The notes beneath the pieces were generated by a model. The model saw nothing but the letters and a program-made list of their open reading frames with translations. It did no database searches and was not told the origin of the DNA. A DNA stretch of 63,354 nucleotides, the filler included, from Reclinomonas americana ATCC 50394 (Eukaryota): assembly GCA_048213135.1 (NCBI GenBank). It is 13 parts of 13 records of this genome, joined end to end, with 100 filler letters (N's around TTAATTAATTAA, not from the genome) between each part and the next. Parts side by side here need not be neighbours in the genome. Positions count along the whole stretch, not along the records: positions 11,155 to 27,232 come from AFZH01023949.1; 12 more parts are not named here. One strand, 5' to 3'. The position numbers and the translations under genes were made by a program. Positions 4,530 to 27,423 of the stretch are shown here, in pieces. Every line of letters starts with the position of its first letter. The first letter of the stretch is position 1.

Positions 4530-5828
4530 CCGGCTGTGCTTTCCGGCCTGAGCCGTCGTGCACAGGAGGAAATGTCGGGATCGTTGACGCTGGCATTGGA
4601 GGCGGAACGAGAGGAGCGGATTGCGCACGAGGCTGAGCAGCAGCGTCGCCAACAGGCTGAAGCAGAGGCACGCGCCGCCGCTGAGGCCGAAGCGGCTGCT
4701 GCAGCGGCAGCTGCTGCTGCGGTGGCGGCCGCTGCTGCTGCTCCTCCGGCAGAGGAAGCACCTGCCGCCGAGGTTCCCGCAGCGGAAGGCGCACCTGTTC
4801 CTGTTGCTGCTGCTGCTGCTGGAGAGGTTCCCGCGGCGGAAGGCGCGCCTGCTCCTGCTGCTGCTGCTGCTGCTGCTCCTGTCGAGGCAGCTCCGGCTGC
4901 GGAGGGAGCGCCAGCTGGTGGTGCCGAGGGTGAACCGGAGGCAGAGCCGGCTGTTGCTGCGGCCGCTGCTGCCGCTGCTGCGGCGGCTGCGGTTCCCGAC
5001 ATTGATCCGGCGGTACTTGCGGAGCTGCCGGACGAGTTCCGTGTGCAGGTCTTGGCCGAGGCGGAGGCGGCTGCGGCTGCGGCAGCAGCAGCTGGTGGAG
5101 TGGGTGGTGGTGCTGCTGCGGCTGCCGCAGACGAGGGTCTGCTGGACGGCCTGGACCCTGAGTTCCTTGCCGAGCTGCCGCCGGAGATTCGCGAGGAACT
5201 GCTGGCCGACGCTCGTCGCCAGCAGCAGGCGGCGGCAGCAGCGGCTCGTGGTAACGCCGCAGCGGCAGCCGACGAAGAAAATCCAGCGCTGGTCATTGCC
5301 AATCTGCCGCCCGAGTTGCGCGAGGAGGTGCTGCTGACGTGCGATGACGAAACACTGGCATCGCTCCCGCCGGGTCTGCGTGCGGAGGCCGAAGCTATTC
5401 GAGCGCGCAATGCCGAGCGATTTGCTTTCGGCCACCCCGGTCACGGCATGGGTGGACGACGCGTGGTGGCGCAGTTTGGTGACGGTGTGCTCGAGGAGGT
5501 GCCTATCCACGGTGTGTACGGTGCTGGCGGCTGGAGAATGGGAGTGGGTTCGGTGAGTGGTGCAGAGACGCGCATTTGTGCGACAGATGATGACTGACGA
5601 TGATGAGGGTTCACAGTATGCAGCGGCGCCGGCAAAGAAGGCTCGCTCAATGGCACTTGGCGTCGACGAGGATCACCCAGTGTGCTCGGAGATCACCTCC
5701 CGCCACATGTCGCTTCTCTGCAAGTTCATGTACTTTACCAGTGCAAGCCGAGGTTTGTCGCTCGCTCAGTCTGTTTGGTGCAGTGCAATCGTGTGTTTGC
5801 TCATGTGCTCTGGCAACATCGCAGGTGA
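4530..5828 (+). CDS. HUWE1/UPL1-type ligase, central region with three ubiquitin-binding (UBM) motifs (partial)
   Basis: IDPAVLAELPDEFRVQVL, LDPEFLAELPPEIREELL and IANLPPELREEVLL...LASLPPGLRAEA, preceded by an Ala/Glu/Pro-rich linker. Confidence 0.85.
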
Positions 5829-11054: not shown

Positions 11055-11367
11055 NNNNNNNNNNNNNNNNNNNNNNNNNNNNNNNNNNNNNNNNNNNNTT
11101 AATTAATTAANNNNNNNNNNNNNNNNNNNNNNNNNNNNNNNNNNNNNNNNNNNNGCGCCAATTGCTGTCGTTGGCATACCTCCAGCAATTGGACATTCGA
11201 TGTCACCATTAGGAGGTTTGCGCCATCCGACTGCGCGTCCCGCTCGCCTCGCCGGAAGCGAACTGAAGCTCCCAGCGCTTCGGGGCCGGAGCCCCGCGCC
11301 AGCTTGTATGGCGAGCAAGTCATCCCGCGAAGGCGTGATTGTGAACTGAGGAGTCAGGCGGCGTCAC

Positions 11368-14300
11368 CTAGCGGGCCGACAGGCGACGTCTCAGTTCGAG
11401 TTGACGCGGATCCAGCGCCGTCTCGGCCTGGTCCGCCAGACGGGCAAGGGCCAGTTCGGCGCCATAGGGCCAATCGCGCGCTGCCTCTCCCAGCACGGTA
11501 TAGAGCAGGGTCAGCACCTCGACGGGGTGCAGTGCTGGCAAGTCGGTGTCGCCGTGGGTGAGGCCCAGCAGGGTCGAGCCCTCGCCCGTGAGCTGCCCCA
11601 GGTGCGGTGTGACGGCCGCCACCATGCGCGGAAAGTCGTCTTTGGCCGAGATCGCCAAATCCATGAGCCGCTCGGTGGTCCGCGACGTCCGGACCCCCAT
11701 CTGGCGGGGCCAGGTTGTCTCCAGAAGCTCAATCGCCTGGTTACGCCAATCAAGACTGCCGCTGGTCCGCCAGCGCCCGAGGGGCCACAGGACCTGGGAA
11801 CGGAACCGATCGCCCCCCGACAGCAAAGCGTGACGCATCTGCTCGTCGGTGATGTAGCGGCCGCCCTCGGCACGCCGGCTTCCCCACCCGGAGAGAAGAA
11901 CCGCCGCCAAGTTCGACGCGTAGTCGTCCTTGAGGTCTTTGGAGCCGACCAAGGCCAGCATCGCCGGAGCCAACTCCGTGAACAGTTCAGGACTCCTGAG
12001 CTGCCCGCTCGACAGCACTCCAGTCCAGAAGGCCGCGCGATCATCGTCGTCCTGGCTTTGCTGCAAGGACAGCAAGCGCCGGCGGGTCCAGGCGCTGTCG
12101 TGGTAGTAGAAGAAGCCCAGACCCGAGCGCAGCAGCGCGACGGCCGCATAGCGCGCCGCATCGCCCGGAACCGTGAAGAGCTGATCCAGGGTCGCCAGCC
12201 AATCGGGGGTGAACCCGGGACCTGGATCGCGTTCACGATCGGTCCGGTCCATCATCGCTTCCACCAAGGCGCCGCTGGGGGCGTTGACCGCATAAAGCAG
12301 CCAGTCGCGATCCTGGCCGAGAATGGCCGATCGGCCTGTCTCGGGATGTTCGGTCATGGCTTGAAGCATGGCCGGCCACAGCGCCGACAGACCAGGTCCG
12401 AACGGCCCGCCCCCCTTGGCGGCTTGGGCAAACCACCGCGAGACGGTGAGCAGGATAGACCCAAGGCTGGCCGACGGCAGCTGGGCCAGCCTCCGGGCGA
12501 TCTGCGCGGACAAGCGAGACCCGTCATCTTTTCGCGCCTCGCGTTCGAGGAACGTTTCCCAGTCGTGGGCCGGAAACTCTCCGGCTCGCCCTGCCAGAAC
12601 CAAAGCCCGCAAGAACTTGACCGGCTTGTCCTTGGCCAGCCCCTCAAGCGGGCGACGCACGATAAAGGCGGCAAAATCCCGCTGGCCGGCGATATTTCTG
12701 GCTGCCTGCAGGACCTCGCGCGGCGCCAGCCCCTTGATGTCGCTGGCGTCTGCATCGGTTTGCACCCAGCCGCTGGAGCTTTCCATGGAGGCGGCCGCGC
12801 CTCCGGCGCCCTCATCTCGCCAATCGGGCGCGATCGTCATCAGGCGCGCCTTCTCGGCGGGCCAATCGATCGTCAGAACACAGCCCTCGTTGACCAGCCA
12901 CTGCAGGCGTTGGATGCTCCACCAAGCACGCCCTGTCTTGGCCGATTCCGCATCCTCATTCTTCCAAGGCTCGCGGCCCGTCAGGATTCGCTGCTCCAGC
13001 GCGGCTTGATCCTGGGGTGAGAAGGCGTTCCAGCGCGCCTTGATCGACAACATCAGATCGCGCTGGTGGTAGTTGTCCCAGAAGGGCTTTTGGCCGATGG
13101 CCAGCAGGGTCGCTGCCGCCTCGGGGGGCGACTGCAAGTCGTCCTCGCCCGCCGCCCATAGCCTAAGACGGCTGGCCACCTCCCCCTCGTCCTGCCAAGC
13201 CGACAGTTCCGTCCGCGCCTGATCCAAGTCCAGCACGCGCAGGCGCTGGAAGAGGTCGACATAGTGGAAGAACGGGCGCGCCAGGCCGTCGCTCCGGGAG
13301 AAGTCGTCCTCATCCTGTCTTGGTTCGGACCTGATCGGGGGCAGACCGGTGTAGGATCGCTCTCCAATCTCAGCGCTATAGATCAGCGCGAGGGTCAGGG
13401 CGCGGCGAAGCGCGGCCAGGACCTGGGGCAGGACCTCGTTGCTGGGCGTCACATCCGGCCGGGGCGCTGGATAGTCGAGCTTCATCCGCACGATCGATCG
13501 CGGTTGGTCAGCGTCGGCCGGGCTTGGCGGCCCGCCCCTTGGGCGCGACGCCTTGATCCTTGGCGTCAGCGCCTCGCCGTAGTCGCGGGCCATGGCGCTG
13601 GTCCAGCCGCCACGCTTGGCCGCGCGGCCAAGCTCCAGAAGGTTGACGTCATTGCCGCCCCAGCTTCGCACCAAGAGCCGCCAGGCCGCCTCAGTGGAGG
13701 TCGGCGCCCCCTCAGCGCGGCCCAGCCGATCCAAGACGGACGAGACGATGTCGGGATGTAGACCGCCCTGCCCGGCGGCCCACCAGGCGGCGATGGGCTG
13801 GTTGGCCACCGCGGCGATCCACTCGCCAAGCGCCGAAAGCCTTCGCACCAGTCGCGGCGAGCGCCCCGAGTGGCGCCCGCGCAGGGCTCCGACTTCGTGA
13901 TCCCCGAGTTCGCTGCGATCATGGCGTGAAATCGCAAGACCATCCCAGGCGTCGGCGGGGATTTCATTGCGGTAGCGGCTCGACTCTATCGGCAGCGGCG
14001 GCGGGTCATCATCGAGCCCGTAGCGCTCGAAGGGCTTGAACTGCCAATCCTCATCGTCGCGCGCATAGCGAATGGTCGGATCAAGGACCGCCAACCATTC
14101 AGCCGGCGGCCCGGCCTTGGCGAAGTGAGCCGCGCCTTGAGGCGTCGAGACGATGTGAGCGACTTGGCCGCGCTCAAAGGCCGCCATCGCACCCGGCCCG
14201 TCCATGGCCTTGGCCAACACCCTCGCCTGCCAGGCGGCCGGGTCGCGGGCGCGATCGGCCCACCCTTCCAGCGTGGACCACAAAGCGGAGAAGTTGTCGG

Positions 14301-15123
14301 CCGGATCGAAGGGAATGGCCTGCACGCCCTTGGCCCGCCACAGCGCCTTGGCCTCGTCGGGCGCGCCGGGCTGGAAGGCGTAGAGCCCGCGCGGCGCGGC
14401 GCGATGGTCATTGAGTGCTTCGAGCAGATATTGCACCGGCGGGTCGTCGGCGGTGTAGCCCACGAAGACCAACTGGTACTGGTCCAGCAGCCCGCGGATG
14501 AAGCGCGTCGCCCAGCCTTCGGCGAGATAGGCGCGTCCGAAATCGGCGCTCGAGAGCACGAAGGCGTAATCGTCAGCGGCGCTGTAGTCGGCGTTGACGC
14601 GCCCATGCAAGTGGGTGATTCCGGTGATGTCCCTGGGTCGACGCGGATCGGGTAGATAGGGCGGCGCGTGGAGCTTTAGATCCGGATCGCAAGCCCCAAA
14701 CAACAGGTCGAAATTGGTGGTGACCAGACGCACCGCGCCATCTGGCCCCTTCGCCAGATCCAGCATCACCCGGTGGGCCGAAAGATCAGCGCCCTCGGGC
14801 GGGGCCAGGGCTCTGGCGACCGCCTCGCGGATGTCGGCGACGTCGAATTCTCTCTCCAGGAGAGCAAAGACGCGATCGGCGGCCAGGAGGCCGCCAACGC
14901 CGGCGATTGGCGCCATGGCCTTGGCCTGCGCCAACAGCTGTCGGGCTGGGCTTTCGGCCACGACGCCCAGTCGCTCGACCACGGCATTGGCCAGCCCGAA
15001 AAAGTCGGCCAGACCCGCGCGGGCACGCGAGACGCCGGCCCCGCAGAAGAAAATGACCTGTCCCTCGTCGCGGGCGACGAGCAGGTCATGGGGAAGGTCG
15101 GGGCCATCGGCTACGAAGCGCAT
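11368..15123 (-). CDS. dsr1: Defence-associated sirtuin (SIR2-like NADase domain + long C-terminal region), Dsr1-like, 1251 aa
   Basis: N-terminal MRF..GP..P..LL.ARDEG.VIFFCGAGVS; SIR2 motifs LVTTNFD, HLHG and LVFVGYTADDP. The size and architecture resemble Dsr1, and it sits next to nuclease/helicase genes. Confidence 0.8.
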   Translation of the reverse strand: MRFVADGPDLPHDLLVARDEGQVIFFCGAGVSRARAGLADFFGLANAVVERLGVVAESPARQLLAQAKAMAPIAGVGGLLAADRVFALLEREFDVADIREAVARALAPPEGADLSAHRVMLDLAKGPDGAVRLVTTNFDLLFGACDPDLKLHAPPYLPDPRRPRDITGITHLHGRVNADYSAADDYAFVLSSADFGRAYLAEGWATRFIRGLLDQYQLVFVGYTADDPPVQYLLEALNDHRAAPRGLYAFQPGAPDEAKALWRAKGVQAIPFDPADNFSALWSTLEGWADRARDPAAWQARVLAKAMDGPGAMAAFERGQVAHIVSTPQGAAHFAKAGPPAEWLAVLDPTIRYARDDEDWQFKPFERYGLDDDPPPLPIESSRYRNEIPADAWDGLAISRHDRSELGDHEVGALRGRHSGRSPRLVRRLSALGEWIAAVANQPIAAWWAAGQGGLHPDIVSSVLDRLGRAEGAPTSTEAAWRLLVRSWGGNDVNLLELGRAAKRGGWTSAMARDYGEALTPRIKASRPRGGPPSPADADQPRSIVRMKLDYPAPRPDVTPSNEVLPQVLAALRRALTLALIYSAEIGERSYTGLPPIRSEPRQDEDDFSRSDGLARPFFHYVDLFQRLRVLDLDQARTELSAWQDEGEVASRLRLWAAGEDDLQSPPEAAATLLAIGQKPFWDNYHQRDLMLSIKARWNAFSPQDQAALEQRILTGREPWKNEDAESAKTGRAWWSIQRLQWLVNEGCVLTIDWPAEKARLMTIAPDWRDEGAGGAAASMESSSGWVQTDADASDIKGLAPREVLQAARNIAGQRDFAAFIVRRPLEGLAKDKPVKFLRALVLAGRAGEFPAHDWETFLEREARKDDGSRLSAQIARRLAQLPSASLGSILLTVSRWFAQAAKGGGPFGPGLSALWPAMLQAMTEHPETGRSAILGQDRDWLLYAVNAPSGALVEAMMDRTDRERDPGPGFTPDWLATLDQLFTVPGDAARYAAVALLRSGLGFFYYHDSAWTRRRLLSLQQSQDDDDRAAFWTGVLSSGQLRSPELFTELAPAMLALVGSKDLKDDYASNLAAVLLSGWGSRRAEGGRYITDEQMRHALLSGGDRFRSQVLWPLGRWRTSGSLDWRNQAIELLETTWPRQMGVRTSRTTERLMDLAISAKDDFPRMVAAVTPHLGQLTGEGSTLLGLTHGDTDLPALHPVEVLTLLYTVLGEAARDWPYGAELALARLADQAETALDPRQLELRRRLSAR

Positions 15124-15186
15124 CGCATGCGATCATGCTGCGCACGCTCCCCTGGCTCAAGGTGAAGCTGATGCTATCTTGACCTT

Positions 15187-16545
15187 ATGGATCACTTCCG
15201 TATCCGCCCGATCGCCGAGAGCGACCTCGACACCGTCGTTCTGGAAGCTGGTGGGCGGCGGGCTCATCCCGACCACGACCGCCGCGATCTGCGCGGCGCC
15301 GATTTTGTCCTAGGCGATCTGGTCATCGAGCTGAAGGCGCTGGACGAGGACGGCTTCGACAAGCCAGCCCGTCAGCAAAAACTCGCCACGCTCTTCCGGG
15401 GGCGCGATCCAGAGCGCCCCGTCGTCGTCGTTGACCGAAAGCGCCTGTCCGAAGACGACCAGCGCACCTACGACCGGATTGTCGAGGGCCCGGTCAAGAA
15501 CGCGATCAAGTCGGCAAAAGGCCAGTTGGAGCAGTCGCGCACCGAATTTCCAGATACCAAGCTGTCGGTCGTCCTGCTTCTCAACAACGGCTACACCGCG
15601 CTCGACCACGACGCGCTGCTGGAGCTTGCCGAGCGACGCGCCCGCAATGACAGCAGCGACATCGACGGCGTCATCGTCGCGGGCTGCTACTTCTACAGCG
15701 ACACCTTCGACAGCTTTTTCACTTGGCCGATCGACTACATTTCGGTTCGCGGTGCCCCAGAGCCCCCGGAATTCGAGGCGCTTCGACAAGCTTGGCACAG
15801 GCTGGCCAACAGCGCGATGACGGCGCTGATGCAGAGCGGGCATGGCCCGGACGCGATCAAGGGTCCCGTCGTGGACATGCAGTTCGACGTCGACGGGGTG
15901 ACCTATGTGAAGCCCGCGCCACCGATGGGTCGCAAGTCGGACTTCTTCGTCAACGGACGACCGCGCAAGGACAGCTCGGGCTTGAAACACTGCCCGCCTG
16001 TCGCGCTCACGCACCCTGGCCTTTCGCTCGCCGAATGGACCCGTCTGCGAAATGTGCTGAGCGGTGATCCGGGGCTTGGCGAAACCTATGAGGATTGGCT
16101 GCGGCAGAAGGCCAAGGGTGTCGAACATGGGACACCCTTGGCCCCCTTTATTCCGGTTGCGGTTACTGCCGCACCCTTCAAGATCTGGTTGGCGACAGAG
16201 CGCCAGCCGGCCACCTTCGGCGCCCTGCTGAACTATGCCAACGGGCTATTCGATACGCGCCTGCGCGTGCTCCTGGCCGGCGCCCGCGAGCGCACCACCA
16301 AGACCCTTTTGCCGCCGCGCTACGTGCTGGCGGTTACCCAGGAGATTGGTCAGGACCGAGCCAACGATGTCTCCGACATCGCGATCGTCCACGAGCTTCT
16401 AAACGGCGAGACCAAGATCTATCCGGTTCTTGAGAACGTCCGGATGTTCCACGAATATGCCCTCACTCTGGCTTGCGCCCATGCCTTGGCCAACGATCTG
16501 GAAACGGTGCTATGGCAGAAGAACCGCACCTACGGGTGGTCCTGA
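15187..16545 (+). CDS. Hypothetical protein, 452 aa, with N-terminal PD-(D/E)XK-like motif
   Basis: Long ORF with GC-rich third positions; 'GADFVLGDLVIELKAL' resembles a restriction-endonuclease-fold active site. Divergent from the SIR2 gene. Confidence 0.7.
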   Translation: MDHFRIRPIAESDLDTVVLEAGGRRAHPDHDRRDLRGADFVLGDLVIELKALDEDGFDKPARQQKLATLFRGRDPERPVVVVDRKRLSEDDQRTYDRIVEGPVKNAIKSAKGQLEQSRTEFPDTKLSVVLLLNNGYTALDHDALLELAERRARNDSSDIDGVIVAGCYFYSDTFDSFFTWPIDYISVRGAPEPPEFEALRQAWHRLANSAMTALMQSGHGPDAIKGPVVDMQFDVDGVTYVKPAPPMGRKSDFFVNGRPRKDSSGLKHCPPVALTHPGLSLAEWTRLRNVLSGDPGLGETYEDWLRQKAKGVEHGTPLAPFIPVAVTAAPFKIWLATERQPATFGALLNYANGLFDTRLRVLLAGARERTTKTLLPPRYVLAVTQEIGQDRANDVSDIAIVHELLNGETKIYPVLENVRMFHEYALTLACAHALANDLETVLWQKNRTYGWS

Positions 16546-16560
16546 CACGTCACCGCCAAG

Positions 16561-17853
16561 CTAGGGGCGCGTGGACGCGCTGGCTTTGCGATCGGGATTG
16601 CTCCGATGGATCTTCACGATCCGAAACGGGAAGCCCAGGTGCTCATCGTTGTCGGCGATCCAGCGCTTTTGCTCTTCGCTGAGGGAGTCCTTGGAGGACT
16701 TGACCTCCGCAAGGAACAATGCCCCGTCCTCGCCTCCAAGCACCAGAAGGTCAGGCCACCCCAAGTGGCGGCCCCAGTAGTCACCGATGAGGTATTGCAG
16801 GATCTTGACGATCGCGGCGGGCGACAGCCGCTCGATCAGCATCCGCCCACGGTCGAAATCCACGTCCTTATGGACCCAAAGATATTGCCGCAGCTCGTAG
16901 CTGACGCCCCGGAAGTAGTCGTAGGTCCATAAGAGCGTGAAGCGATCGTCTGGCAGCTCAGCGAAGAAACGCTTGAGTTTGGCGGCGCGGCGGTCGGCGT
17001 AGGTTGGCTTTCCGAAGTCCTCCGGGAGGCTGGCCCATATCTGCCGGCACGGTCGTCCGGCCTCATAGTCGTCGCGATTGCCAAAGCCGCAGAAGCGGAC
17101 CTGATCATCGAGCGTATCGCAGATGACCAGCGCCATCATCACCGCGAAAAGCGACATGAACGGCACGCTCTCTAGCGGGATCGCTTCCAGGCCCTGCGCG
17201 CGATAGTGCTCTATCGCGAAAGCTTCGGGCGAGATCACTTCGTCGCCGACCTGGATGATCGCGCCCTTGCGCCCCTTCGGCGCGTATTCTGCGGTGAGGT
17301 TCTCGATCTCGACCTTGTAGCGGGTTAGCACCTCCTGGTCGGAGACCTCGGTGTAGACGTACTTGGGTGAGGCCTCATGCAGGGCCTTGATCTCTGCCAG
17401 CACGGCCGCCGCGATCTCCGCCTGGGCCAGGACTTTTGCGTCTTCGTCCGCATCGGGATGCGCGACTTCCCAGTCGTCGAAGCGCCGCATCTCCTCGAAG
17501 AACAGCTCGCGCCAGTAGTAGCGCTTGATCTTGGACGTCGCGCCCATAGACGGCGCCCTAGGCGTCGGCTGGGCTGGAAGGCCTCTGCATTCGGGGCAGA
17601 TCGCAGGTTGGAACCCCAGGGTCACGGGAATCCGCTGCTGCGACTCCAGGACCGTTCCCTCTCGAAGTTGATGCGCCAGAAACCGCCTGCCAAACGCCTC
17701 GTCGCAGGCGCACATCATCAGCGCGTCACATGAGCCGCAGGCGTACTTTCGGATCAGCTCGTAGGGGTTGATGCAGACGGCGTCAGCATGGTTGCAATTG
17801 CTGGTCTTGATGATTTGCGCGTGGTCGCCGGCGGGACGTTTCGGAAGCGCCAT
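16561..17853 (-). CDS. VRR-NUC (FAN1-like) nuclease with N-terminal Cys-rich putative Zn-binding region, ~430 aa
   Basis: C-terminal GWPDLLV...LAEVKSSKDSLSEEQKRW is the VRR-NUC motif; the N-terminus has CNH, CGSC, MCAC and CPEC. The ATG at 17853 lies 1 nt past the helicase stop and is preferred over the 17958 start in the ORF track. Confidence 0.82.
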   Translation of the reverse strand: MALPKRPAGDHAQIIKTSNCNHADAVCINPYELIRKYACGSCDALMMCACDEAFGRRFLAHQLREGTVLESQQRIPVTLGFQPAICPECRGLPAQPTPRAPSMGATSKIKRYYWRELFFEEMRRFDDWEVAHPDADEDAKVLAQAEIAAAVLAEIKALHEASPKYVYTEVSDQEVLTRYKVEIENLTAEYAPKGRKGAIIQVGDEVISPEAFAIEHYRAQGLEAIPLESVPFMSLFAVMMALVICDTLDDQVRFCGFGNRDDYEAGRPCRQIWASLPEDFGKPTYADRRAAKLKRFFAELPDDRFTLLWTYDYFRGVSYELRQYLWVHKDVDFDRGRMLIERLSPAAIVKILQYLIGDYWGRHLGWPDLLVLGGEDGALFLAEVKSSKDSLSEEQKRWIADNDEHLGFPFRIVKIHRSNPDRKASASTRP

Positions 17854-17854
17854 C

Positions 17855-19714
17855 TCAAGCCACACCCAAGGCCGCGCCGATGTCCTGCATCCCGGCCGCC
17901 TCAACCATGTCCCACAGCGCAGCGACATTGCCACGCGCCGAGTTGGTCGAGGTGACAAACAGCCGCTCGCGGGCGCGCGAGACGGCCACGAAGAAGAGGA
18001 GCGCCTCCTCTTTAAGGTCGGGCGAGCTGAAGAAGCCGTCGTTCTGCAGATGCAGGAAGAAGACGGTGTCGGCCTCGAGACCCTTGCTCTTGTGCACAGT
18101 CATCAGGCGGACCTGGTCGCGCCCCCGGAACTGGGCGACGGCCGCCGTCCACGTCGCGGCGCTGTTCAGGCATTCCTGAAGGAAGGCCGCAGTAGCGGCC
18201 TTGACCGTCTCCAACCACTCGGGATTTTCGTAGTCGGGCGACAACTGCGGTAGCAGCCTGTCCCCAACGGTCTTGAGAATATCGTCCATCAGGAAATGGG
18301 CGTCGATCTCGCTGGTCGCGGAGGCTGCAGCCTTGCGGGCTACCGCGACAGCCTCGCCGATCAGCTTCTCAACGCGCGCTTCGGAGGCGGGCCGGTCGTC
18401 CTGGTTCCCCAGCACCGGGCCAACCATGTTGCGAACGCGATGGAACGGTGCGTCGGTCCGGTCGTCGATCGCCATCTGGATAACGCCGATCACCAGGTCG
18501 ACCAGGGGCTCGGTCATCAGATCCTGAATGGCGACGCCATCGACGTTGCGCGCTTCGTTGCGCAACACCAGGCCTTGGCGCGTAAAGGCGTCCGTCAGAT
18601 CGGTCTCGATGTCGCCGGCGTTCTGACGGACGAGAAGCAGGTAGTCCTGAGCTTTGGCGCCCTTCTCCTGGATTTCCCGTGCGATCAAGCCCGCCAGCCC
18701 GGCGGCTTCGGCTTCAATGCCCGGGAACAGAATGTAGCCGTCCGTCGGCTGGGGAAGATCGTCAACGATCCGGCCAGCGACGACCGGGATGGCGTCCGGC
18801 TCGATGGACCGGGCCATGGTGTTGACGATCTCGACAATCCGAGGATTGGACCGAAAATTCGAGGTGAGCGGGATCAGATCCGCTCGGAAGTCGTCGCGGA
18901 AGTCCGTGAACACCGAGGCGCGGGCACCGGCGAAGGTCATGATCCGCTGCTTGCTGTCGCCGACTGCGGTGACGATCGCTGGCGATCTCTGAAAGGCGAC
19001 CTTCAGCAGAGCATACTGGAGGTGGGTGGTGTCCTGGAACTCGTCGAGAAAGATGTGGGAATAGGTCGCCCGCAGCGCCGCGGCGATCTGTGGGTTGTGG
19101 GCCAAGATCGTCATGGCCAAAGTGCTGATCATGCCGAAGGTCAGCCGAACCGGCTTTCTAGCGCCTAACTCAGCCCACCATGCCAAGCCCGGTTTGTTCG
19201 TGAGCAGATCCTCGTCAAATGTCCGGGGCAAAGGGCCCGGCGAGGCCGTCAGCGTCGCGTGCCCCTGCTCCAGCTGGCGGCCGTTGACGCCGTAACCCGA
19301 GCGGTCGGCGAAATCGCGCCACTCTCTGGGCTTGAAGAAGCCAATGCTGTAATCGCGCGGGACGCGGCACCACTCGGGCAACGCCGAGCCAAACCGGTCG
19401 AGGATGCTCTTGGCGAAGGCGTCGAAGGTGTAGCTTTCCAGCCGCCTGGAGAGCTCTTCGCCCACGCGGACGGCCACCCGCTCGCGTAGATTTCTCGCCG
19501 CGTCACGCTTGAAGCTGATGGCCAGGATTCGACGCGGCGCCGGGCATGTGTCGGTCTGAAGCAGATAGGACGCGCGCTGAGCCAAAAGTTCGGTCTTGCC
19601 CGCGCCGGGCCCTGCGATGATGACCGCATTGGTAGCGCTCTGGACAGCCTCCCGCGTCGGCGCGTCGAGCACGACATGGCTCGGCGGGGCCCAATGTTCG
19701 GGCGCCAAGCGCAT
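17855..19714 (-). CDS. UvrD/Rep-like SF1 helicase (GajB-like), 619 aa
   Basis: AGPGAGKT, LDEFQDT, GDSKQRI, TSNFRS, TVHKSKGLE, FVAVSRAR; start overlaps the upstream OLD stop (TGATG). Confidence 0.92.
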   Translation of the reverse strand: MRLAPEHWAPPSHVVLDAPTREAVQSATNAVIIAGPGAGKTELLAQRASYLLQTDTCPAPRRILAISFKRDAARNLRERVAVRVGEELSRRLESYTFDAFAKSILDRFGSALPEWCRVPRDYSIGFFKPREWRDFADRSGYGVNGRQLEQGHATLTASPGPLPRTFDEDLLTNKPGLAWWAELGARKPVRLTFGMISTLAMTILAHNPQIAAALRATYSHIFLDEFQDTTHLQYALLKVAFQRSPAIVTAVGDSKQRIMTFAGARASVFTDFRDDFRADLIPLTSNFRSNPRIVEIVNTMARSIEPDAIPVVAGRIVDDLPQPTDGYILFPGIEAEAAGLAGLIAREIQEKGAKAQDYLLLVRQNAGDIETDLTDAFTRQGLVLRNEARNVDGVAIQDLMTEPLVDLVIGVIQMAIDDRTDAPFHRVRNMVGPVLGNQDDRPASEARVEKLIGEAVAVARKAAASATSEIDAHFLMDDILKTVGDRLLPQLSPDYENPEWLETVKAATAAFLQECLNSAATWTAAVAQFRGRDQVRLMTVHKSKGLEADTVFFLHLQNDGFFSSPDLKEEALLFFVAVSRARERLFVTSTNSARGNVAALWDMVEAAGMQDIGAALGVA

Positions 19715-21789
19715 CAGAGGTCCCCCACGTCGAGACCCAGCAGGGCTCGGCAGCGATCGAACAGGGCCTTGAGGGGCTCGGGACAGCGGGCCTTGATCGC
19801 TTCGACCTCCAGCTCGGCCAAGGCCTCAACGTGGGCGACGGGCTTGCTGCCCTTCTTGAAGAGCGCGTCGTACTGGGCCAGGTGCAAGGCGGTCGGTGCA
19901 GTCAGCGCATCGAACATCTCCAACCCCTTCCCTTTTCCAAAAACCGACTCCTCATAGCCGTCGGTCGAGATCGGGGCGGCGACGCCGGCGACGGCGCCAT
20001 AGGCGGCCGGGAAAGCCTGGAGCATCATCATGTCGAGATCGACGTCGCGGGAATAGAACACATCCCGTGTCCTGAGCCATTCGATCCAAGCCGCGATGTA
20101 AGCGCCATCCAAGGTGTCCCAATCGGCGGCCTTGGTCGGTCGCGGCAGCAACGGGATTTTGACGCCAATCACCTCAAGCTGGTCGACGGCGTACTTCAGG
20201 CGGCGCGGCCCGCCGCCGCTGCGGCCCAGGTCGTAGTCGAGCAGCGTGACGTAGGGAATTTGAAGCCCATCGAGCAGACGCCAGAAGTGATTGACGTGCC
20301 GCCCGCCCAGCGGGACGAACGCCACGAAGGCCGGATCCAGTTCGAGGTCGGCGTGAAGGGCTCGCGCCACGCGCGGCAGGACCATTTCTTCGGACCGCCC
20401 TTCCCCCAGAATGACCAGACGCGAGAAGTAGAGTTCGGGGTGGCTGATGACCGCTTCCTGGACGAACTTATGGGCGTCGCTGGCGATGGGCGGCAGCTTG
20501 ATTGGATTGACCTTGGAGGTCAGCGTCGCGGCGTTATGGCGGATGTGGCGCACCTGCTGGGGGGCCACGCGGCGCAGGGCGCTGGCCGAATGGGTGGTCA
20601 AGAGACCCATCACCGCCGGGCTGCGGGCCTGCTCGGTCATCAGACCGACCATCCGCGACAGGTAGAACGGCGCCAGGTGGTTCTCTGGCTCTTCTAGCGC
20701 CAGCACAGTCAGCCAAGGCCGCACGGCCTCGACCTCGCGGAAGCCGTCCGGCTTGGCCTTGGCCAGTTCGGCGTCGAGCTTGAAGAGCGTGACCACCAGA
20801 GCCAGGTAGAAGAGCGAGGCCTGGCCTTCGCTCAGTTCATGGACGGAGCGATGGCGGCCGCCAGGCCCCGGGCCCAAGGTCAGGGAAAGATCGCGCAGCG
20901 CCCGCTGTATCTCCCGGGCCAGGACGGTCAGCCGCGGCGCGCGCAGATGCGGCCCGTCGAACAGCAGACCCCAGTTGACCGCGAGTTCCGACGTGACACG
21001 GCTGATGGCCGGCATGTCGTCGAACAGCTGCTGCATGCCGTCCCACTGCTTAGCCATGGGCTCGCGGCCACCGCTCCAGTCGCCGAACTTCTCCAGCCAG
21101 ACCAGAAGCTCACGCAGCGCCTGGCGCAGTATCGCGTCGCCGTCTCGGGTGGCCGGCAGATAGCGGACCTGGAAGCGTCGACGATCATTGGCCGAGAACG
21201 CCAGCTTGGCGACATCGCGCTCGCCGAAGGGCACGTCGCCCATCGACGTCACCCAGAACATCTCGGTCTGGATGTCGTCGTCGTCGACGCCATAGGTCCA
21301 GGTCGCCTCCAGACGGATGCGCGCCTTCAGGGCGTCCCCGGGGCCGGCCGCCGACATCGCCCGGAAGATCTCGGCCACCGCGCCCATCCGATCGAGGACC
21401 GGATCGTCCAGTTCGGGGAAGGCCAGGACCACTTCGATCAGGACCTGCCGGCTGGAGACCAGCACCGTCGGATCAGGCTCGACGGGATCAGCCGCGCTCG
21501 CTGCCCCGGCCTCGCTCAGGATGTCGCGCAGGCCGCTGACCGCAGGCGGCGGCGCAACGACCTCCCGAGTGGCCCCGGGCTCTTCGTCTCGGCCGAAATG
21601 AACGTCTTCACGGACCAGGCGCCGGTCCTCGGCGCGGGTTCCGAACAGCTTCTGAAGCGCGCCGATGATCGCGGTTTTGCCCGCGCCATTGGCCCCGACG
21701 ATCGCGGTCAGGGTCTCGTCGAACTCGATCTTCGCGCCCTGGTCGCCGAAGCAGCGGAAATTCCGCAGGTAGAGGCTTTCTATGAACAT
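19714..21789 (-). CDS. OLD-family ABC-ATPase/TOPRIM nuclease (GajA-like), 691 aa
   Basis: Walker A GANGAGKT, signature LSEGQ, Walker B LALEEPENHL, H-loop TTHS, TOPRIM LGEGRSE and LLDYD. Confidence 0.92.
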   Translation of the reverse strand: MFIESLYLRNFRCFGDQGAKIEFDETLTAIVGANGAGKTAIIGALQKLFGTRAEDRRLVREDVHFGRDEEPGATREVVAPPPAVSGLRDILSEAGAASAADPVEPDPTVLVSSRQVLIEVVLAFPELDDPVLDRMGAVAEIFRAMSAAGPGDALKARIRLEATWTYGVDDDDIQTEMFWVTSMGDVPFGERDVAKLAFSANDRRRFQVRYLPATRDGDAILRQALRELLVWLEKFGDWSGGREPMAKQWDGMQQLFDDMPAISRVTSELAVNWGLLFDGPHLRAPRLTVLAREIQRALRDLSLTLGPGPGGRHRSVHELSEGQASLFYLALVVTLFKLDAELAKAKPDGFREVEAVRPWLTVLALEEPENHLAPFYLSRMVGLMTEQARSPAVMGLLTTHSASALRRVAPQQVRHIRHNAATLTSKVNPIKLPPIASDAHKFVQEAVISHPELYFSRLVILGEGRSEEMVLPRVARALHADLELDPAFVAFVPLGGRHVNHFWRLLDGLQIPYVTLLDYDLGRSGGGPRRLKYAVDQLEVIGVKIPLLPRPTKAADWDTLDGAYIAAWIEWLRTRDVFYSRDVDLDMMMLQAFPAAYGAVAGVAAPISTDGYEESVFGKGKGLEMFDALTAPTALHLAQYDALFKKGSKPVAHVEALAELEVEAIKARCPEPLKALFDRCRALLGLDVGDL

Positions 21790-22063
21790 CGTCGAGCCTT
21801 TTGCGCTCTCCGGATGCGCCCATAGCTCCGGGGCAGACCAACCCTTAGGCGATCAAGCTTAACCTCGCAACGCAAACAGGTGCGCCGTCTCCTCGCGATC
21901 CTTGAGGTTCTCGAGCCCCGAAGCTGGGTCGAAGCCGGCGCGAAGTGCGCCAGGGGGCAGCGCCCCCAAGCCCGCACACAGCAGCGCGCCCACATAGAAT
22001 GAAGTTTGAACGAGGGGCGCACAGCAGGCGCGCGAGGCGCCAGTCCATCTGTTGGCGCACGCA

Positions 22064-22954
22064 TCAGCAGCGCTCGGAGAACCGGTCGTAAGCGTCGATC
22101 TTGCGGGCGAGCAGATCAACGTCGCCGCCGTAGATTTCGCGGCGCAGGAACAACAGCTCCGCGTCCTTGTCGGCCTCGGCGACATCGACGTACCAGCAGC
22201 GCGGCGGGACGACATCGTCGCCGCCCCAGCGATAGCCGCGCGCCTTGAGCTTATCCTTCATGGCGAACGGCGAGTTCTCCGCCCAGATCCGCCAACTGGC
22301 GGTACGGGCGCTTTCCAGCAGCCGCACCAGGCCTCGCGCGCCGCTCCTGGGCAACGGCAGGGCCAGCAACTCGATGGCCGCCAGACAATCGCTGGTCGCC
22401 CGGTGGCGGTCGTAGAAGAAGCCGGCCCCTGTCGCCAGATAGGCCAGCTTGGCGCCCTCGTGCCCCTCGCCCTTCCAGTCGATCTGGCTCATCGAACAGG
22501 CCCAGGGCTTGGTGCGAAAGACCGGACTGAACTGCTCGAGGAAGCGACGGTCGAACGCGGCGTTGTGGGCGATGACCAAGGCGGCGGGCGCGGCGAAACT
22601 AGCCACCGCGTCGGCGTCGATGACCTGCCCCTCGACCATGGCGTCGTCGATTCCCGTCAGTTCGGTGATTTCCAGCGGGATCGGATCGGTGGGCTGGCGG
22701 TAGCCGTGGAAGGGCTCCAGCACCTCGTAAACGACGCCATCCAGGCCATAGCGGAACGGGATCATGGCCAGTTCGATGATCTCGTCGCGCTTGGGATCAA
22801 GGCCGGTGGTCTCGACGTCCACGAAGAGACCGATCCGGGTCTTCTCGCCGTCCGGCGGCGAGATCTTGGGGCGGGTGCCGAGTTTGCGCAGCACCCGATA
22901 TTCGCCGCTTGCCTCCAGGGCGGCGGCCATCGCCGGTAGGTCGAGCGAGGCCAT
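22064..22954 (-). CDS. DEDDh 3'-5' exonuclease (DnaQ/Pol III epsilon-like), 296 aa
   Basis: ExoI DVETTG, ExoII HNAAFD, ExoIII HRATSD. Confidence 0.9.
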   Translation of the reverse strand: MASLDLPAMAAALEASGEYRVLRKLGTRPKISPPDGEKTRIGLFVDVETTGLDPKRDEIIELAMIPFRYGLDGVVYEVLEPFHGYRQPTDPIPLEITELTGIDDAMVEGQVIDADAVASFAAPAALVIAHNAAFDRRFLEQFSPVFRTKPWACSMSQIDWKGEGHEGAKLAYLATGAGFFYDRHRATSDCLAAIELLALPLPRSGARGLVRLLESARTASWRIWAENSPFAMKDKLKARGYRWGGDDVVPPRCWYVDVAEADKDAELLFLRREIYGGDVDLLARKIDAYDRFSERC

Positions 22955-23117
22955 GGCCGCCTAGCCGGCCTTGGCGAGCAGCTGCCGCGCCGTCTGCGTC
23001 ACGGCGATGTCCGGTAAGGCGAAATTGGTCATCTGGCCCTCACTTGCAGGGTCAGCCTGACACGCGCCTCCGTCAATTGCGGTCGCCCCGCCTGGACGGT
23101 GCGCCCACCTGCGGGCG

Positions 23118-25103
23118 TCAAAGCCACACCTCCCCCGTGGACGAGACGCGGGCCACGGCCCATTGCCTGGCGATCATGGCGTCGACGTCTTGGTCCGAGA
23201 AGTCCGCGGCGTCCATGGCCATGCAAAGAAGATGACTCGGCCGCGTCATGGCGACGTAGTGTTGTTTCAGACTATCGCGGATCGTCGCCGAAGTCTGCTC
23301 ATCTCCATGTCGCGCGCCCAAAAGCCAAGGCTTCAGTCGCGCGAGGTTGTTCCCCCGATAGAAGGTCTCCAACACCAACGTGGCGGTATGGGTCTCGCCC
23401 TTGGCGGCATGGATAGAACCGACATCGATCTCGAGCTTTCCGGCCGCATGGGCGTAGCTGAAAGTATTGGAGGCAGGCGTTTCATCTTGCTGGGAGCCCA
23501 AAGGGGTCCAGTCGAGAAAGGCACCGACATCCCCCGGCTCACATCCAGCTATCGCAGCAGCCACGCGCGTCCAACGCGGCACCCATTTCTCGGCCCACTC
23601 TTGTTCGTCGGCAGGCAGACGCCCTCGCGCCACCAGTTCGACAAGGCCAAGATAGATCCGCCGGGCTGTATCATCGTCGCCAAGCGCATCCAGGACCTCA
23701 AGATGTCTTCGCTCACGCCGTGAGACCTTGGCGTTGGGGTCTGCCAGACGCGCTAGATGCAACACGGCTCCGGCGATCTGATCGACCGTCTGACGAACGT
23801 CACCATGCTTGGACCTCGCCGTGGCCAAGGCCTGGACAAAGCGCGTGGGCCGGGGGTCCAGGCCGGATCGCTCATGGTCGTAACCGGGGCAGTAATCGCC
23901 AACCACAAGATGGTCCGATCCGTCGACGCGAGGCTTGTGGACGTGGCCGATCGCCGTGAACCGACCGTCCTTGAGCATGCCCGCCGGGACATGGGCGAGG
24001 ATTCGTCGCGCGAACGTCGGCAGGACTTGCGCTACCGCGGCGCGTTCGAACAGAAAGATCGCGTGGCCTGGCGTCGGTGAGGCCTGCCGCATCCCCACCA
24101 ATCCGGCCGGCTTCGGCGCCACTGGATCGGCCAGCGCCGCAATGGCCGAGCAGAACCGATGACTATTCGCGATCGGCCAAGCGCAGCCGTCACGTGGAAA
24201 AGCATCGGTGGACGCGACGGCATCGCTGGCGTCGGCATGGCCGAAGATGGCCTGGTTCATGTCGCCGAACCGCTGCCTTACCGCGCTGCCCTCCCCCGCG
24301 GTGAAAAGGCGATGGAGAATCCGAGCCTGAGGCTCGGTCGTGTCTTGAACCTCGTCGATGAAGACGATCGGAAAACGCCGGCGGATATCCCCCACGAGAC
24401 TCGGCGAGCGCGCCAGCAGGCTCTCGGCCCAGAGGAAAATCTCGTCGTAGCGGAGATAGCCTTCCGCCATTGAATCCACGAACGCCGACCGGAGCGCGTG
24501 ATAGGCTTCGCCGTCCTTTCGCAGGTTCCCTCTGCCCCATTTGACGTCCCCAAGATCGCCATCGGCATCCAGCACCTGGAGCTTTCCAAGCTCGACCCCG
24601 GCTGTGGCCATGCCGGACCTTGTCTTGAAAGGCAGCTTGGCCGTCCTGACCCGATTGGCGAACGCATCGTCGATGAACCGCGGTACGATGCCTTGGGATC
24701 GAAGCGCGGGTCCTGCCACGAACTGGTTCACGAACCCGTGGATCGTGCCGACGAAATGCGGATAGGCCAGCAGACGATGCCCGCCAGCGGCTGGTGCCAG
24801 CCTCGTCTCGATCTCATGTCGCGCGACATTGGTATGGGAAATGACGCAGATGCCCTGACCTCGCCCCTGCCAGTCGCGAAGCATCAAGGCGAGTTTGGCG
24901 ACAAGCAGGGTGGTCTTCCCGCTTCCCGGACAGGCGGCGACATCGAGATCCCCGAGATGCGCCAGAACACCTCTGCGCGCATCGGCGCCGTCCTCGCCGA
25001 GGAACGCGTTGTCCGGCAGGCCAAGTTGTTGCGCCGCCCACCTAAAATCGTCGTCACCATACTGGATGGTGTCCCAGCCAGCCCTGCGCGGCGCCAAGCT
25101 CAT
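23118..25103 (-). CDS. UvrD/Rep-like SF1 helicase (GajB-like), 661 aa
   Basis: ACPGSGKTT, FIDEVQDT, GDMNQAIF, NSHRF, SIHAAKGETH, YVAMTRP; 4-nt ATGA overlap with the upstream OLD gene. Confidence 0.92.
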   Translation of the reverse strand: MSLAPRRAGWDTIQYGDDDFRWAAQQLGLPDNAFLGEDGADARRGVLAHLGDLDVAACPGSGKTTLLVAKLALMLRDWQGRGQGICVISHTNVARHEIETRLAPAAGGHRLLAYPHFVGTIHGFVNQFVAGPALRSQGIVPRFIDDAFANRVRTAKLPFKTRSGMATAGVELGKLQVLDADGDLGDVKWGRGNLRKDGEAYHALRSAFVDSMAEGYLRYDEIFLWAESLLARSPSLVGDIRRRFPIVFIDEVQDTTEPQARILHRLFTAGEGSAVRQRFGDMNQAIFGHADASDAVASTDAFPRDGCAWPIANSHRFCSAIAALADPVAPKPAGLVGMRQASPTPGHAIFLFERAAVAQVLPTFARRILAHVPAGMLKDGRFTAIGHVHKPRVDGSDHLVVGDYCPGYDHERSGLDPRPTRFVQALATARSKHGDVRQTVDQIAGAVLHLARLADPNAKVSRRERRHLEVLDALGDDDTARRIYLGLVELVARGRLPADEQEWAEKWVPRWTRVAAAIAGCEPGDVGAFLDWTPLGSQQDETPASNTFSYAHAAGKLEIDVGSIHAAKGETHTATLVLETFYRGNNLARLKPWLLGARHGDEQTSATIRDSLKQHYVAMTRPSHLLCMAMDAADFSDQDVDAMIARQWAVARVSSTGEVWL

Positions 25104-27046
25104 GACGCCGCCGGCGTGACATGACGAAGGGCCGAGACGAGGTAGCCCGGCAACCGCGCCAGCAGATCAGTCTTGGAAAAGGCGCCGCGAACGACCTTGT
25201 GTTCGAGGATTCCGGCCAGGTATTGGGCCGCTATGGCCTTCGACGCCCCTTGATCGAACAAGAGGTAGATACGGGTCGCCCGTTCGTCGGCTGGCAGCCC
25301 GGCCAAGGTCGCGCGATAAAGCTCAATGGCGGCGCGTAGCGTGGCCCGGGTGGATACCTGCGTTCCATCCGCCAGCGCCAAGCTTGCGGCGAGATAGACT
25401 TCTTCGGCCAAGCCATGGAAAGCCAGATCGTACTCGAAGGTCCATTCGTCAGCTACGAAGGTCTCGACCGATTGGCCCGAGGCGCGCGCGACAATCCGTG
25501 CGCGCTGCTGCGAGAGTTGCTCGCCTGGGAAGTCCGACTTCATGCGCCAGCGGCGCCTGTTTCTCGCCGGCGCGACACCCTGATCATCAAGAAGCCCACG
25601 CAGCTCGGGTGCGCAATCGGGCATGACGTCGAAATCGGTAATGCAGGCCACCGGCGTGCCGATCACGCCGGTGGCCGGATCGGCACGCTGGAATATTCGG
25701 GCGTAGCGCCCAAGACCTACCCCGCCCACGTTGACGATCGAAACGCCATGCTCGGTCAGGTCCAGGCCTACCAGCCGCGCGATCGTCGGGATGACGATAG
25801 CCTCGGCGTCGCCCTCGACGATCAGCACGCCGCGAGCGAAGAAGAGATTGGCCTTCGTGACGTCGAGGAAGCGTTGAAGAAATGCGTAGTCCCTGCGATC
25901 GAGGCGGGTGTGTCGCGGGCCCAAGGGAAAGGCCTTTCCGCCGCGCAGCAACACCAGCCGACTAAGATCGATGGCCGAGGCCAGGTTGGGACTGTGTGTC
26001 GTCAGCACGACCTGCAGCGGAACCTCGTCGGCCTGGGCCTCACGGCTTTGACGCGCGAGGAACTGGATCAGCCGCAGCTGTCGCTGAGGGTGGAGATGCG
26101 CCTCGGGCTCCTCGATGAGAAGAAACGGAAACCCTTCCCCCTCGTAGCGTAGCAGCAGGAGTTCTGTGGCTATGAACAGCAGGTTGTTCGAGCCCAGCCC
26201 TCTGGCCGGCGGCGGTTCCAGACGCCCTTCGTCTCGAAGATTGAGCTCCAATTTCTCCAGCAGTTGCCGCAAGCGGACGGCATTCTCCGCCGCTGCGCCG
26301 CCGACATCGATCTCGCCCCGCAGCCGATCACCAACAAAAGACAGCGCCTCAAGGTAGTCGGTGTTCAGGCGATCGCGCGCCTGACGCACGCCCTGGTGCT
26401 GACGAAGCAGATGGTTGGCGTAGTCGCCGATCCCCAGGACGCTGAGATTGGCCGGCTCCAGATCGTCGTCGTCGGCAAACCCCACCCCATGATCGGCGAC
26501 CTCCCGCGTATGTTGCAGGATCTGGGAAAGCCGCGAGCCTCGCCCTGCCGACAACGCCTGCTCGGCGTCGCGAAGAGGCCGAAGATAAGTTGCGCATAGG
26601 GCCTGACGCGCCTCGAATTCGAGCGGCGGCCCCTCCCCATCCGCGCCGGATCGGATTTCGGTCTGAATGAACCGGCGCGCGCCGCGTGACGTCGGCCACG
26701 CTCGCCAGGTCAAGCTGAGACTGGCGCGTCCATCGTCGTCATAGGTAAGGTGCTCTAGGAAGGAAGAGCGGTCAGCCGCGCTCAGATCGTCGAAGCGAAC
26801 GCGAATTCTCGCGTCCGTGGCGGCCGCTGCAGCACCAGGCGGCTGATGAAAATCACTGTCCGAGACACGGAGCGTTTCGAGGCCCCGCACACCCAGGACC
26901 AGCCGAAGCCCATCGACTATCGCCGTCTTGCCAGCGTCGTTTTCACCGACAATCGCGGTCAGCCCCGTTTCGAGCGGCAGATCGAGGGCTTGGCCCCCAG
27001 CCCCGAACGCTCGGAAGTTCTCGATCCTCAGCGATGAAAGCCGCAA
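25100..27046 (-). CDS. OLD-family ABC-ATPase/TOPRIM nuclease (GajA-like), 648 aa, TTG start
   Basis: IENFR, Walker A GENDAGKT, GLGSNNL, LLIEEPEAHLHP, TTHSP, TOPRIM VEGDAE and TDFD. Confidence 0.92.
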   Translation of the reverse strand: MRLSSLRIENFRAFGAGGQALDLPLETGLTAIVGENDAGKTAIVDGLRLVLGVRGLETLRVSDSDFHQPPGAAAAATDARIRVRFDDLSAADRSSFLEHLTYDDDGRASLSLTWRAWPTSRGARRFIQTEIRSGADGEGPPLEFEARQALCATYLRPLRDAEQALSAGRGSRLSQILQHTREVADHGVGFADDDDLEPANLSVLGIGDYANHLLRQHQGVRQARDRLNTDYLEALSFVGDRLRGEIDVGGAAAENAVRLRQLLEKLELNLRDEGRLEPPPARGLGSNNLLFIATELLLLRYEGEGFPFLLIEEPEAHLHPQRQLRLIQFLARQSREAQADEVPLQVVLTTHSPNLASAIDLSRLVLLRGGKAFPLGPRHTRLDRRDYAFLQRFLDVTKANLFFARGVLIVEGDAEAIVIPTIARLVGLDLTEHGVSIVNVGGVGLGRYARIFQRADPATGVIGTPVACITDFDVMPDCAPELRGLLDDQGVAPARNRRRWRMKSDFPGEQLSQQRARIVARASGQSVETFVADEWTFEYDLAFHGLAEEVYLAASLALADGTQVSTRATLRAAIELYRATLAGLPADERATRIYLLFDQGASKAIAAQYLAGILEHKVVRGAFSKTDLLARLPGYLVSALRHVTPAAS

Positions 27047-27423
27047 ATCTCGCCCCGTCTCGCGGCGATTCTACGGGTCGCCGTCCGGTAGCAAGGCTAT
27101 CCCGGACTCGTTTTCCATGCACGTCCGTCTTTTTAAGAAGTCCCCAAGACGAGGCTGGACCCAAACCGACGCAACCGACATCAGCAAAGAGTCAGGTCCG
27201 TTGGTCCTCGAGCCCGCCCCCTGGCCGCCCGCNNNNNNNNNNNNNNNNNNNNNNNNNNNNNNNNNNNNNNNNNNNNTTAATTAATTAANNNNNNNNNNNN
27301 NNNNNNNNNNNNNNNNNNNNNNNNNNNNNNNNCGTCTACGTCAAGGCTTGAGCCCGCTGCGGCGGTTCGGCTGATGGACAGGGGCCCGGCACGTCGCTAT
27401 CGACGGCGCCGGGGAGCCTGTTC

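Follow-up and report, generated by a model that had tools for sequence, protein, structure and literature searches.

A canonical Gabija pair followed closely by an independent FAN1-type nuclease gene in a bacterial defence island

We analysed three consecutive genes on the minus strand at positions 16561-21789 of a 63,354-nucleotide stretch of DNA (the window) taken from assembly GCA_048213135.1 of Reclinomonas americana ATCC 50394. They encode an OLD nuclease, a UvrD-like helicase and a cysteine-rich VRR-NUC nuclease, and an initial annotation had presented them as a candidate undescribed three-component Gabija-like system. In Gabija systems such as that of Bacillus cereus VD045, GajA is a class 2 OLD nuclease and GajB a UvrD-like helicase. 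We found that the first two genes are a canonical two-gene Gabija system, here called GajA2 and GajB2, and that the third belongs to an independent nuclease family which is not a Gabija component. The three genes do not form a conserved three-part system: GajA and GajB are missing from all the other nuclease loci scanned, and the nuclease from all the other GajB-relative loci scanned. The locus is not a new system but a known Gabija pair next to a member of an unstudied family of FAN1-type nucleases. With a probability of roughly 70 %, we consider the most likely reading to be a defence island that holds a canonical Gabija pair and, beside it, an independent FAN1-like nuclease acting autonomously against phages or other mobile DNA.

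Results and discussion

Gene order and junctions

The window is made of separate pieces joined by linkers, and the piece studied here covers 11155-27232. Along its minus strand the genes are transcribed in the order GajA1, GajB1, DEDDh exonuclease, GajA2, GajB2 and VRR-NUC gene. The last three, with the parts of the nuclease discussed below, are as follows, with lengths in amino acids (aa) and the basis for each call (open reading frame, ORF; domain or model match; alignment) at the end of the line.

19714-21789, minus strand: GajA2, class 2 OLD protein (ABC-type ATPase plus TOPRIM nuclease), 691 aa, first gene of Gabija pair 2 (ORF, Pfam, PADLOC)
17855-19714, minus strand: GajB2, UvrD-like superfamily 1 (SF1) helicase, 619 aa (ORF, Pfam, PADLOC)
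16561-17853, minus strand: short FAN1-type nuclease (VRR-NUC), 430 aa from the ATG at 17853 (ORF, Pfam VRR_NUC)
17587-17796, minus strand: Cys/His-rich N-terminal domain, residues 20-89 of the nuclease (conservation, predicted model)
16600-17319, minus strand: FAN1-type nuclease domain, residues 179-418, a VRR-NUC core plus helical insert (VIA alignment)
16699-16752, minus strand: catalytic PD...EVK motif, D368/E383/K385 of the nuclease (family alignment)

The three ORFs, the TGATG overlap of the OLD and helicase genes at 19714 and the VRR-NUC ATG one nucleotide past the helicase stop are all as first annotated. Where GajA2 ends and GajB2 starts, the sequence reads ctcTGATGcgc (19716-19712), with one A common to both codons. 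The GajB2/nuclease junction reads gctTGAgATGgcg (TGA-g-ATG), with a single base between the helicase stop at 17855 and the ATG at 17853. An upstream in-frame TTG at 17958 would add 35 residues to the nuclease; because this extension is not kept in homologues, the start is probably the ATG at 17853. The public gene call for the nuclease (P0002) is only 328 aa long, matching at 76 % query coverage and 100 % identity. It drops about 100 residues, so that the conserved Cys/His-rich domain is lost, and this short form is probably a start-codon mis-annotation.

Closely packed co-directional genes are commonplace in bacteria, so the 1-nt gap speaks for likely co-transcription and not for a functional tie. 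Co-transcription of the nuclease gene with gajB is plausible from this gap. A promoter and terminator scan of 15000-27232 gave one promoter-like and nine terminator-like sites, not above the level of shuffled sequences.

The nuclease and Gabija occur apart

A third gene starting one nucleotide past gajB could mean a lineage-specific three-component Gabija, in which the FAN1-like nuclease would process nicks or flaps made by GajA/GajB into gaps or breaks. In favour of this, the junction leaves no promoter space, the G+C content at third codon positions (GC3) is alike in all three genes, and the gene order is kept in four metagenome runs and in the records L001, L071 and L078. The chemistry would fit as well, since FAN1 enzymes combine 5' flap cleavage with 5'-3' exonuclease activity (PMC9635880) and GajA nicks DNA.

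The distribution of the genes argues otherwise. A forward scan using one genome per species gave 70 nuclease loci, one of which (L001) is the window's own lineage, leaving 69. When these were searched with both GajA and both GajB queries (tblastn, E<=1e-5), not one of the 69 contained GajA or GajB, with at least 2 kb of upstream DNA present in 57 of them and at least 4 kb in 54. Pfam placed a UvrD or OLD-TOPRIM domain in 0 of 125 genes flanking nuclease homologues. Clustering of 1003 ORFs showed that the largest neighbour family is common to at most 6 of the 70 loci, and the biggest directly adjacent group is a HipA-like kinase found in 5 sphingomonad loci. The initial annotation had proposed counting how often OLD and UvrD genes lie directly upstream of VRR-NUC homologues; unrelated neighbours predominate there.

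The reciprocal comparison gave the same picture. Among the 79 other GajB2-relative metagenome loci listed, 74 have a relative of GajA2 directly upstream, showing that the search method detects a real partnership where one exists. The nuclease is found in none of these 79 listed loci, 55 of which have at least 1300 nt of downstream DNA, nor in any of six further GajB-relative loci obtained from 401 genomes of the same class. Downstream of GajB relatives we found opposite-strand, distant or unrelated genes, including HNH, integrase, HsdS, SbcD, HD and DUF2971 genes. In L079, the nearest relative of this Gabija pair (GajB 61 % and GajA 72 % identical), the place downstream is taken by a DUF2971 gene. 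In the same record (2690-4995) the GajA homologue appears as two ORFs, of 444 and 316 aa, possibly because of a frameshift or an assembly error.

Outside the window, the three-gene order occurs only in records 99-100 % identical to it (L001, L071 and L078) and in metagenome contigs. This degree of identity indicates one lineage and one event. The contigs come from four runs of four studies (X1, X3, X5 and X10); mapped over 15000-22300, they span the gajB/nuclease junction with few differences. Three apparent joints in these contigs, all from X3, have sides of 21 letters and very different depths; we rejected them as deletion variants and read them as other organisms or repeats.

The spacing itself is not special to Gabija, as the nuclease gene lies equally tightly behind an unrelated co-directional gene in 26 of 62 other loci. 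With its own locus counted, the upstream gene is on the same strand in 46 of 63 nuclease loci and tightly spaced in 27 of 63, which is not clearly above ordinary operon frequencies.

A predicted complex of GajB residues 1-593 with nuclease residues 17-423 gave no answer (score 0.00, without controls) and is evidence neither way. Our literature search found no Gabija with a VRR-NUC or FAN1-like component and no report of this nuclease family in defence, the supplements of PMC13069673 and PMC9635880 lying outside the search. Considering the separate distributions, the single lineage that carries the trio, the different downstream gene in L079 and the equally tight unrelated junctions, we regard a three-component Gabija as quite improbable, even as a lineage-specific arrangement.

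Identity of the Gabija pair

The OLD, UvrD and VRR-NUC domain calls of the initial annotation were right according to Pfam, and PADLOC adds the identity of GajA and GajB. GajA2 carries AAA_15, AAA_21 and OLD-like_TOPRIM and matches the PADLOC GajA model PDLC00090 with E 1.1e-185. Its TOPRIM residues 448-541 resemble the C-terminal region of a Xanthomonas class 2 OLD protein (6njv, E 7e-6). GajB2 carries UvrD-helicase, UvrD_C and AAA_19 and matches the PADLOC GajB model PDLC00103 with E 1.9e-179, its best solved relatives being PcrA and UvrD. By identities, order and junctions, the two genes are a canonical two-gene Gabija system.

A short FAN1-type nuclease

Pfam places VRR_NUC at residues 334-413 of the third protein (E 4e-10), and three further comparisons bear out the assignment of this domain to the FAN1 type. 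Foldseek with an AlphaFold2 model built from 20 family members (predicted local distance difference test, pLDDT, 86.4; predicted template modelling score, pTM, 0.76) gave 23 matches at E<=1e-3, all of them human FAN1 or Pseudomonas PaFAN1 (E 2e-11). VIA aligned model residues 179-418 with human FAN1 775-1009 over 214 residues (Z 19.9, root-mean-square deviation 2.7), and gave Z 17.4 for PaFAN1 and Z 7.2 for the minimal VRR-NUC protein 4qbn. The family profile matched FAN1 sequences with E 1.2e-12.

The putative active site appears intact. All 20 family members in the alignment share D368, E383 and K385, and in the family profile this D/E/K motif aligns to the FAN1 segment 'PDL...VEVKGPNDRLSHKQ'; the family segment 'GWPDLL...VEVKSSxDxLSxxQxxW' is the one aligned to the FAN1 catalytic segment. 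On the basis of the profile alignment and PMC9635880, the three residues correspond to D507, E522 and K524 of PaFAN1. By analogy with FAN1 and PaFAN1, the protein would be a metal-dependent, structure-specific DNase with nicks, 5' flaps or branched DNA as its substrates.

The rest of the protein departs from FAN1. No SAP domain is aligned, and a helical hairpin (about residues 100-178) overlaps only the end of the FAN1 TPR region; the alignments reach FAN1 655/700-775 at most, and Pfam gives no SAP or TPR match. A missing alignment is not in itself proof that these domains are absent. With 178 residues ahead of the nuclease domain, the full FAN1 architecture does not fit.

The N-terminal 105 residues gave no fold match with Foldseek or in a VIA-wide comparison. 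The initial annotation had described an N-terminal region of about nine cysteines, and its CNH, CGSC, MCAC and CPEC motifs are indeed present and conserved; the count has to be corrected to eight cysteines plus two conserved histidines. In the 41 sequences compared, C20, H22, C39, C42, C48, C50, H61, C86 and C89 never vary, and C27 is kept in at least 90 %. Modelled alone, this Cys/His domain has a pLDDT of 81.8. The best Foldseek E was 2.4, the weak resemblances being to zinc modules such as those of Kti11 and Kaiso; in the VIA-wide comparison none of the 48161 chains had Z>=2. Judging from the conserved residues, the domain probably binds metal. Gene 3 is a short FAN1-type nuclease with a predicted intact D-E-K site and, as modelled, a new N-terminal domain.

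The family is large. Scoring of 8000 candidates gave at least 838 clusters of homologues at E<=1e-3, and in the best 120 of these almost all members are 371-448 aa long and, where named, are called only 'VRR-NUC domain-containing protein' or 'hypothetical'. An ESM Atlas search with the nuclease returned unnamed VRR-NUC clusters only, and none of the NCBIfam models matched. One homologue, in L036 (7362-9221) behind a Ser/Thr kinase gene, has an ORF of 619 aa and possibly an N-terminal extension.

Distribution and possible role of the nuclease family

In the window's bacterial family, 2 of 201 genomes carry the nuclease, one being the same lineage and the other holding an N-terminal fragment with stop codons; within the genus it is present in 1 of 19 genomes. 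The record titles of the nuclease loci, on the other hand, name many bacterial phyla and two archaeal metagenome-assembled genomes. A core repair enzyme would not be expected to be patchy within a family yet spread across phyla; an accessory gene that moves horizontally would.

In the 125 flanking genes Pfam identified integrases, transposases, a relaxase, HipA, HigB, AbiEii, Abi_C, Mrr, DUF4238, Schlafen-like and NACHT proteins, along with plain metabolic genes. PADLOC matches at E<=1e-12 were found for 14 of the 125 direct flanking genes (14 of 68 loci), including ThsB, Avs3a, AbiEii, MkoC and DinG-exonuclease. Of the 97 genes in these loci that lie 5 kb or more away, 8 matched as well, RT-Toprim, PifA and LmuC among them. 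Many nuclease loci sit in defence-rich regions. In L046 (5184-7976), the gene ahead of the nuclease homologue encodes a DinG-type helicase with a fused DEDDh exonuclease and stops 19 nt short of the homologue.

One explanation for these findings is that the third gene encodes a DNA-repair enzyme, a FAN1-like flap or crosslink nuclease without any role in defence that lies beside Gabija by chance. Its closest solved relatives, FAN1 and PaFAN1, are repair nucleases, the family sits on chromosomes, the plasmid and phage collections yielding no match, and some homologues adjoin RecQ, DnaE-like polymerase or FolD genes. The very patchy occurrence speaks against such a role, and so do the lack of conserved synteny and the many mobile or defence neighbours. 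The residues ahead of its nuclease domain also appear to include neither SAP nor most of the FAN1 TPR region. Nor is there an SOS-box signal in the window: the motif GTTC-N7-GTTC gave 41 matches with at most one mismatch where 51.7 were expected, and no exact match near the operon. We think a pure repair function unlikely.

Alternatively the gene could encode an antibacterial VRR-Nuc toxin resembling the effectors TseV and Plu1493, accompanied by an immunity gene. VRR-Nuc domains serve type VI secretion system (T6SS) effectors of the TseV type that cut branched DNA (PMC9635880), and an N-terminal domain without a fold match could be a delivery module. Against this, the clustered loci show no conserved downstream gene as an immunity candidate, the 125 flanking genes contain no T6SS, PAAR, VgrG, LXG or CdiB domain, the domain groups with FAN1 and not with the minimal VRR-NUC folds, and the next gene in the window is convergent. 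An effector of this kind is very improbable here.

We favour reading the locus as a defence island whose modules are separate units tightly arranged, head to tail. Gabija forms a GajA/GajB complex in which GajA nicks DNA while GajB senses DNA ends and hydrolyses nucleotides (10.1101/2023.05.02.539174 and PMC10822852). GajA2 and GajB2 presumably act as published, as a hetero-oligomer with GajA nicking and with GajB end sensing and nucleotide hydrolysis. The nuclease gene would have landed one nucleotide behind gajB in this lineage and would probably be read through from the Gabija transcript. Its product would be a structure-specific nuclease composed of a Cys/His domain (probably metal binding), a helical hairpin and a FAN1-type PD-(D/E)xK domain. 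As the members of the family are chromosomal, move horizontally and often lie among defence or mobile genes, an autonomous role against phages or other mobile DNA is the most likely function of the protein.

Several observations weigh against this reading. A defence role of the family is unproven: the nuclease matches none of the families of PADLOC-DB v2.0.0 at E<=1e-3, and tblastn found it in 0 of 50,697 phage records and 0 of 72,556 plasmid records. Genes adjoining the nuclease (14/125) are no richer in PADLOC matches than distant ones (8/97), and some of the flanking matches are generic (RecQ, ThiF, kinases); in the absence of a gradient we rejected a defence enrichment centred on the nuclease. 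The independence of the nuclease from Gabija also has points to answer. GC3 is 0.80 for the nuclease, 0.82 for gajB2 and 0.84 for gajA2, so composition gives no mark of separate acquisition. Because the 1-nt gap has no room for a promoter, the nuclease probably depends on Gabija transcription in this lineage, which is compatible with a local functional tie, and the three-gene order is stable across the contigs of the four metagenome runs and studies. Finally the sampling is limited, as the locus scans rest on peptide patterns and on at most 80 loci.

It is conceivable that the family has a more general property. We tentatively raise the possibility, for which we hold a good deal less confidence, that the Cys-rich FAN1-type nucleases of about 400 aa are an undescribed anti-phage or anti-mobile-DNA family, each a portable promoterless single-gene module placed behind unrelated defence or toxin genes and cutting nicked, flapped or branched phage DNA. 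If so, the partner would be Gabija here and AbiEii, a NACHT protein, a Schlafen-like protein, a DinG-exonuclease or HipA elsewhere; the Cys/His domain would be the DNA-binding or sensing part, and the nuclease would deepen the damage that starts from GajA nicks.

Had the trio proved to be a conserved system, Gabija would have gained a new type whose second effector is a eukaryote-like flap nuclease; the comparative data speak against this and spare a bench test built on a false premise. The locus also serves as a worked example that spacing resembling translational coupling in defence islands does not imply a shared system. The large unnamed family of short FAN1-type nucleases could reasonably and cheaply be put through a single-gene defence screen, and is relevant to the use of FAN1-type domains outside crosslink repair.

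Other genes of the island

The remaining features of the analysed piece are the following.

22064-22954, minus strand: DEDDh 3'-5' exonuclease (PRK09182 family), 296 aa, between both Gabija pairs (Pfam RNase_T, NCBIfam NF006615)
23118-27046, minus strand: second, divergent Gabija pair, GajA1 at 25100-27046 and GajB1 at 23118-25103 (PADLOC)
15187-16545, plus strand: convergent gene of no known family, 452 aa (ORF)
11368-15123, minus strand: Dsr1-like SIR2 protein, 1251 aa (Pfam SIR2_2, PADLOC Dsr1)

Upstream, Gabija pair 1 matches the PADLOC models PDLC00099 (GajA, E 1e-191) and PDLC00147 (GajB, E 5e-163). Pairs 1 and 2 stand in tandem, are 24-28 % identical in cross-hits and differ in GC3 (0.72 for pair 1 versus 0.82-0.84). 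Two divergent Gabija systems in one island could possibly complement each other in phage range.

The DEDDh exonuclease between them scores 413.9 bits against NCBIfam NF006615 (cut-off 207), and a 62 % identical exonuclease also lies upstream of GajA in L079 (1214-2089). We considered it as a third component and rejected it, as GajA/GajB lie within 1.5 kb in 0 of 22 other DEDDh loci; of the 79 other GajB-relative loci listed, just one has it, which counts toward the same decision. G001 has a second DEDDh copy (75 % identity) about 19 kb off on the same contig.

The stop codon of the convergent 452-aa gene lies 15 nt from that of the nuclease gene. Its product has no Pfam, PADLOC or NCBIfam match; by eye, the N-terminus shows a D...ELK pattern recalling PD-(D/E)xK nucleases, and a 53 % identical homologue is present in L004 (16111-17223), about 7 kb from a nuclease homologue. 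Beyond it, the Dsr1-like protein matches PADLOC Dsr1 with E 6.7e-76 across its first 350 residues or so.

The window and G001 (L184) are 99.1 % identical over 14918-27232 only, and G001 has other genes beyond. This identity ends about 69 codons into the Dsr1-like gene, and the break at 14918 shows that the island differs between near-identical lineages at this edge. The match to L078 also begins at 14918, where the L078 sequence itself ends. L183 (9323-12348, G001 contig C29) holds genes for a TnsA-like protein and a Mu/TnsB-like transposase about 9-12 kb past GajA1. It may be that a Tn7-like element carries the defence island as cargo. In the window as a whole, positions 4430-58992 contain 24 runs of N, the linkers having the form N44-12 bases-N44.

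Comparison with known systems

Pair 2 resembles known Gabija systems in that genes 1 and 2 match the GajA and GajB models end to end, follow the order gajA then gajB and overlap at stop and start. It differs in being very divergent from the solved Bacillus proteins. A phmmer search of Protein Data Bank (PDB) sequences with GajA2 returned SMC and a Xanthomonas class 2 OLD fragment and nothing else, and the PADLOC match of pair 2 is broken into two segments, pointing to an insertion of some 40 residues behind the Walker A region. No feature marks pair 2 as a new Gabija type.

Type II Gabija consists of GajB and a MazF-like GajC (PMC13069673). In it a Gabija helicase is joined to a different nuclease, a precedent for module exchange around GajB. 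There GajC stands in place of GajA, recurs in many genomes and has been tested; the window locus, by contrast, keeps GajA, and its extra nuclease is not recurrent with Gabija.

With the TseV-type effectors and the stand-alone VRR-Nuc protein 4qbn, the nuclease shares the PD-(D/E)xK VRR-Nuc core and, as would be expected from PMC9635880, a preference for DNA structure over sequence. It differs from these effectors in that its family comes without an immunity gene or secretion context, and its fold is much nearer to FAN1 than to minimal VRR-Nuc proteins.

FAN1 and PaFAN1 are the nearest solved relatives of the nuclease. The nuclease carries the FAN1-specific helical elaboration, and its D/E/K residues and 'EVKxxxDxLSxxQxxW' segment align with theirs. 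It differs from them in length, the protein having about 400-430 aa, with only 178 residues ahead of its nuclease domain, compared to 559 aa for PaFAN1, in an N-terminus formed by a conserved Cys/His-rich domain without a fold match, and in the patchy distribution of the family in variable contexts that are often those of defence or mobile genes.

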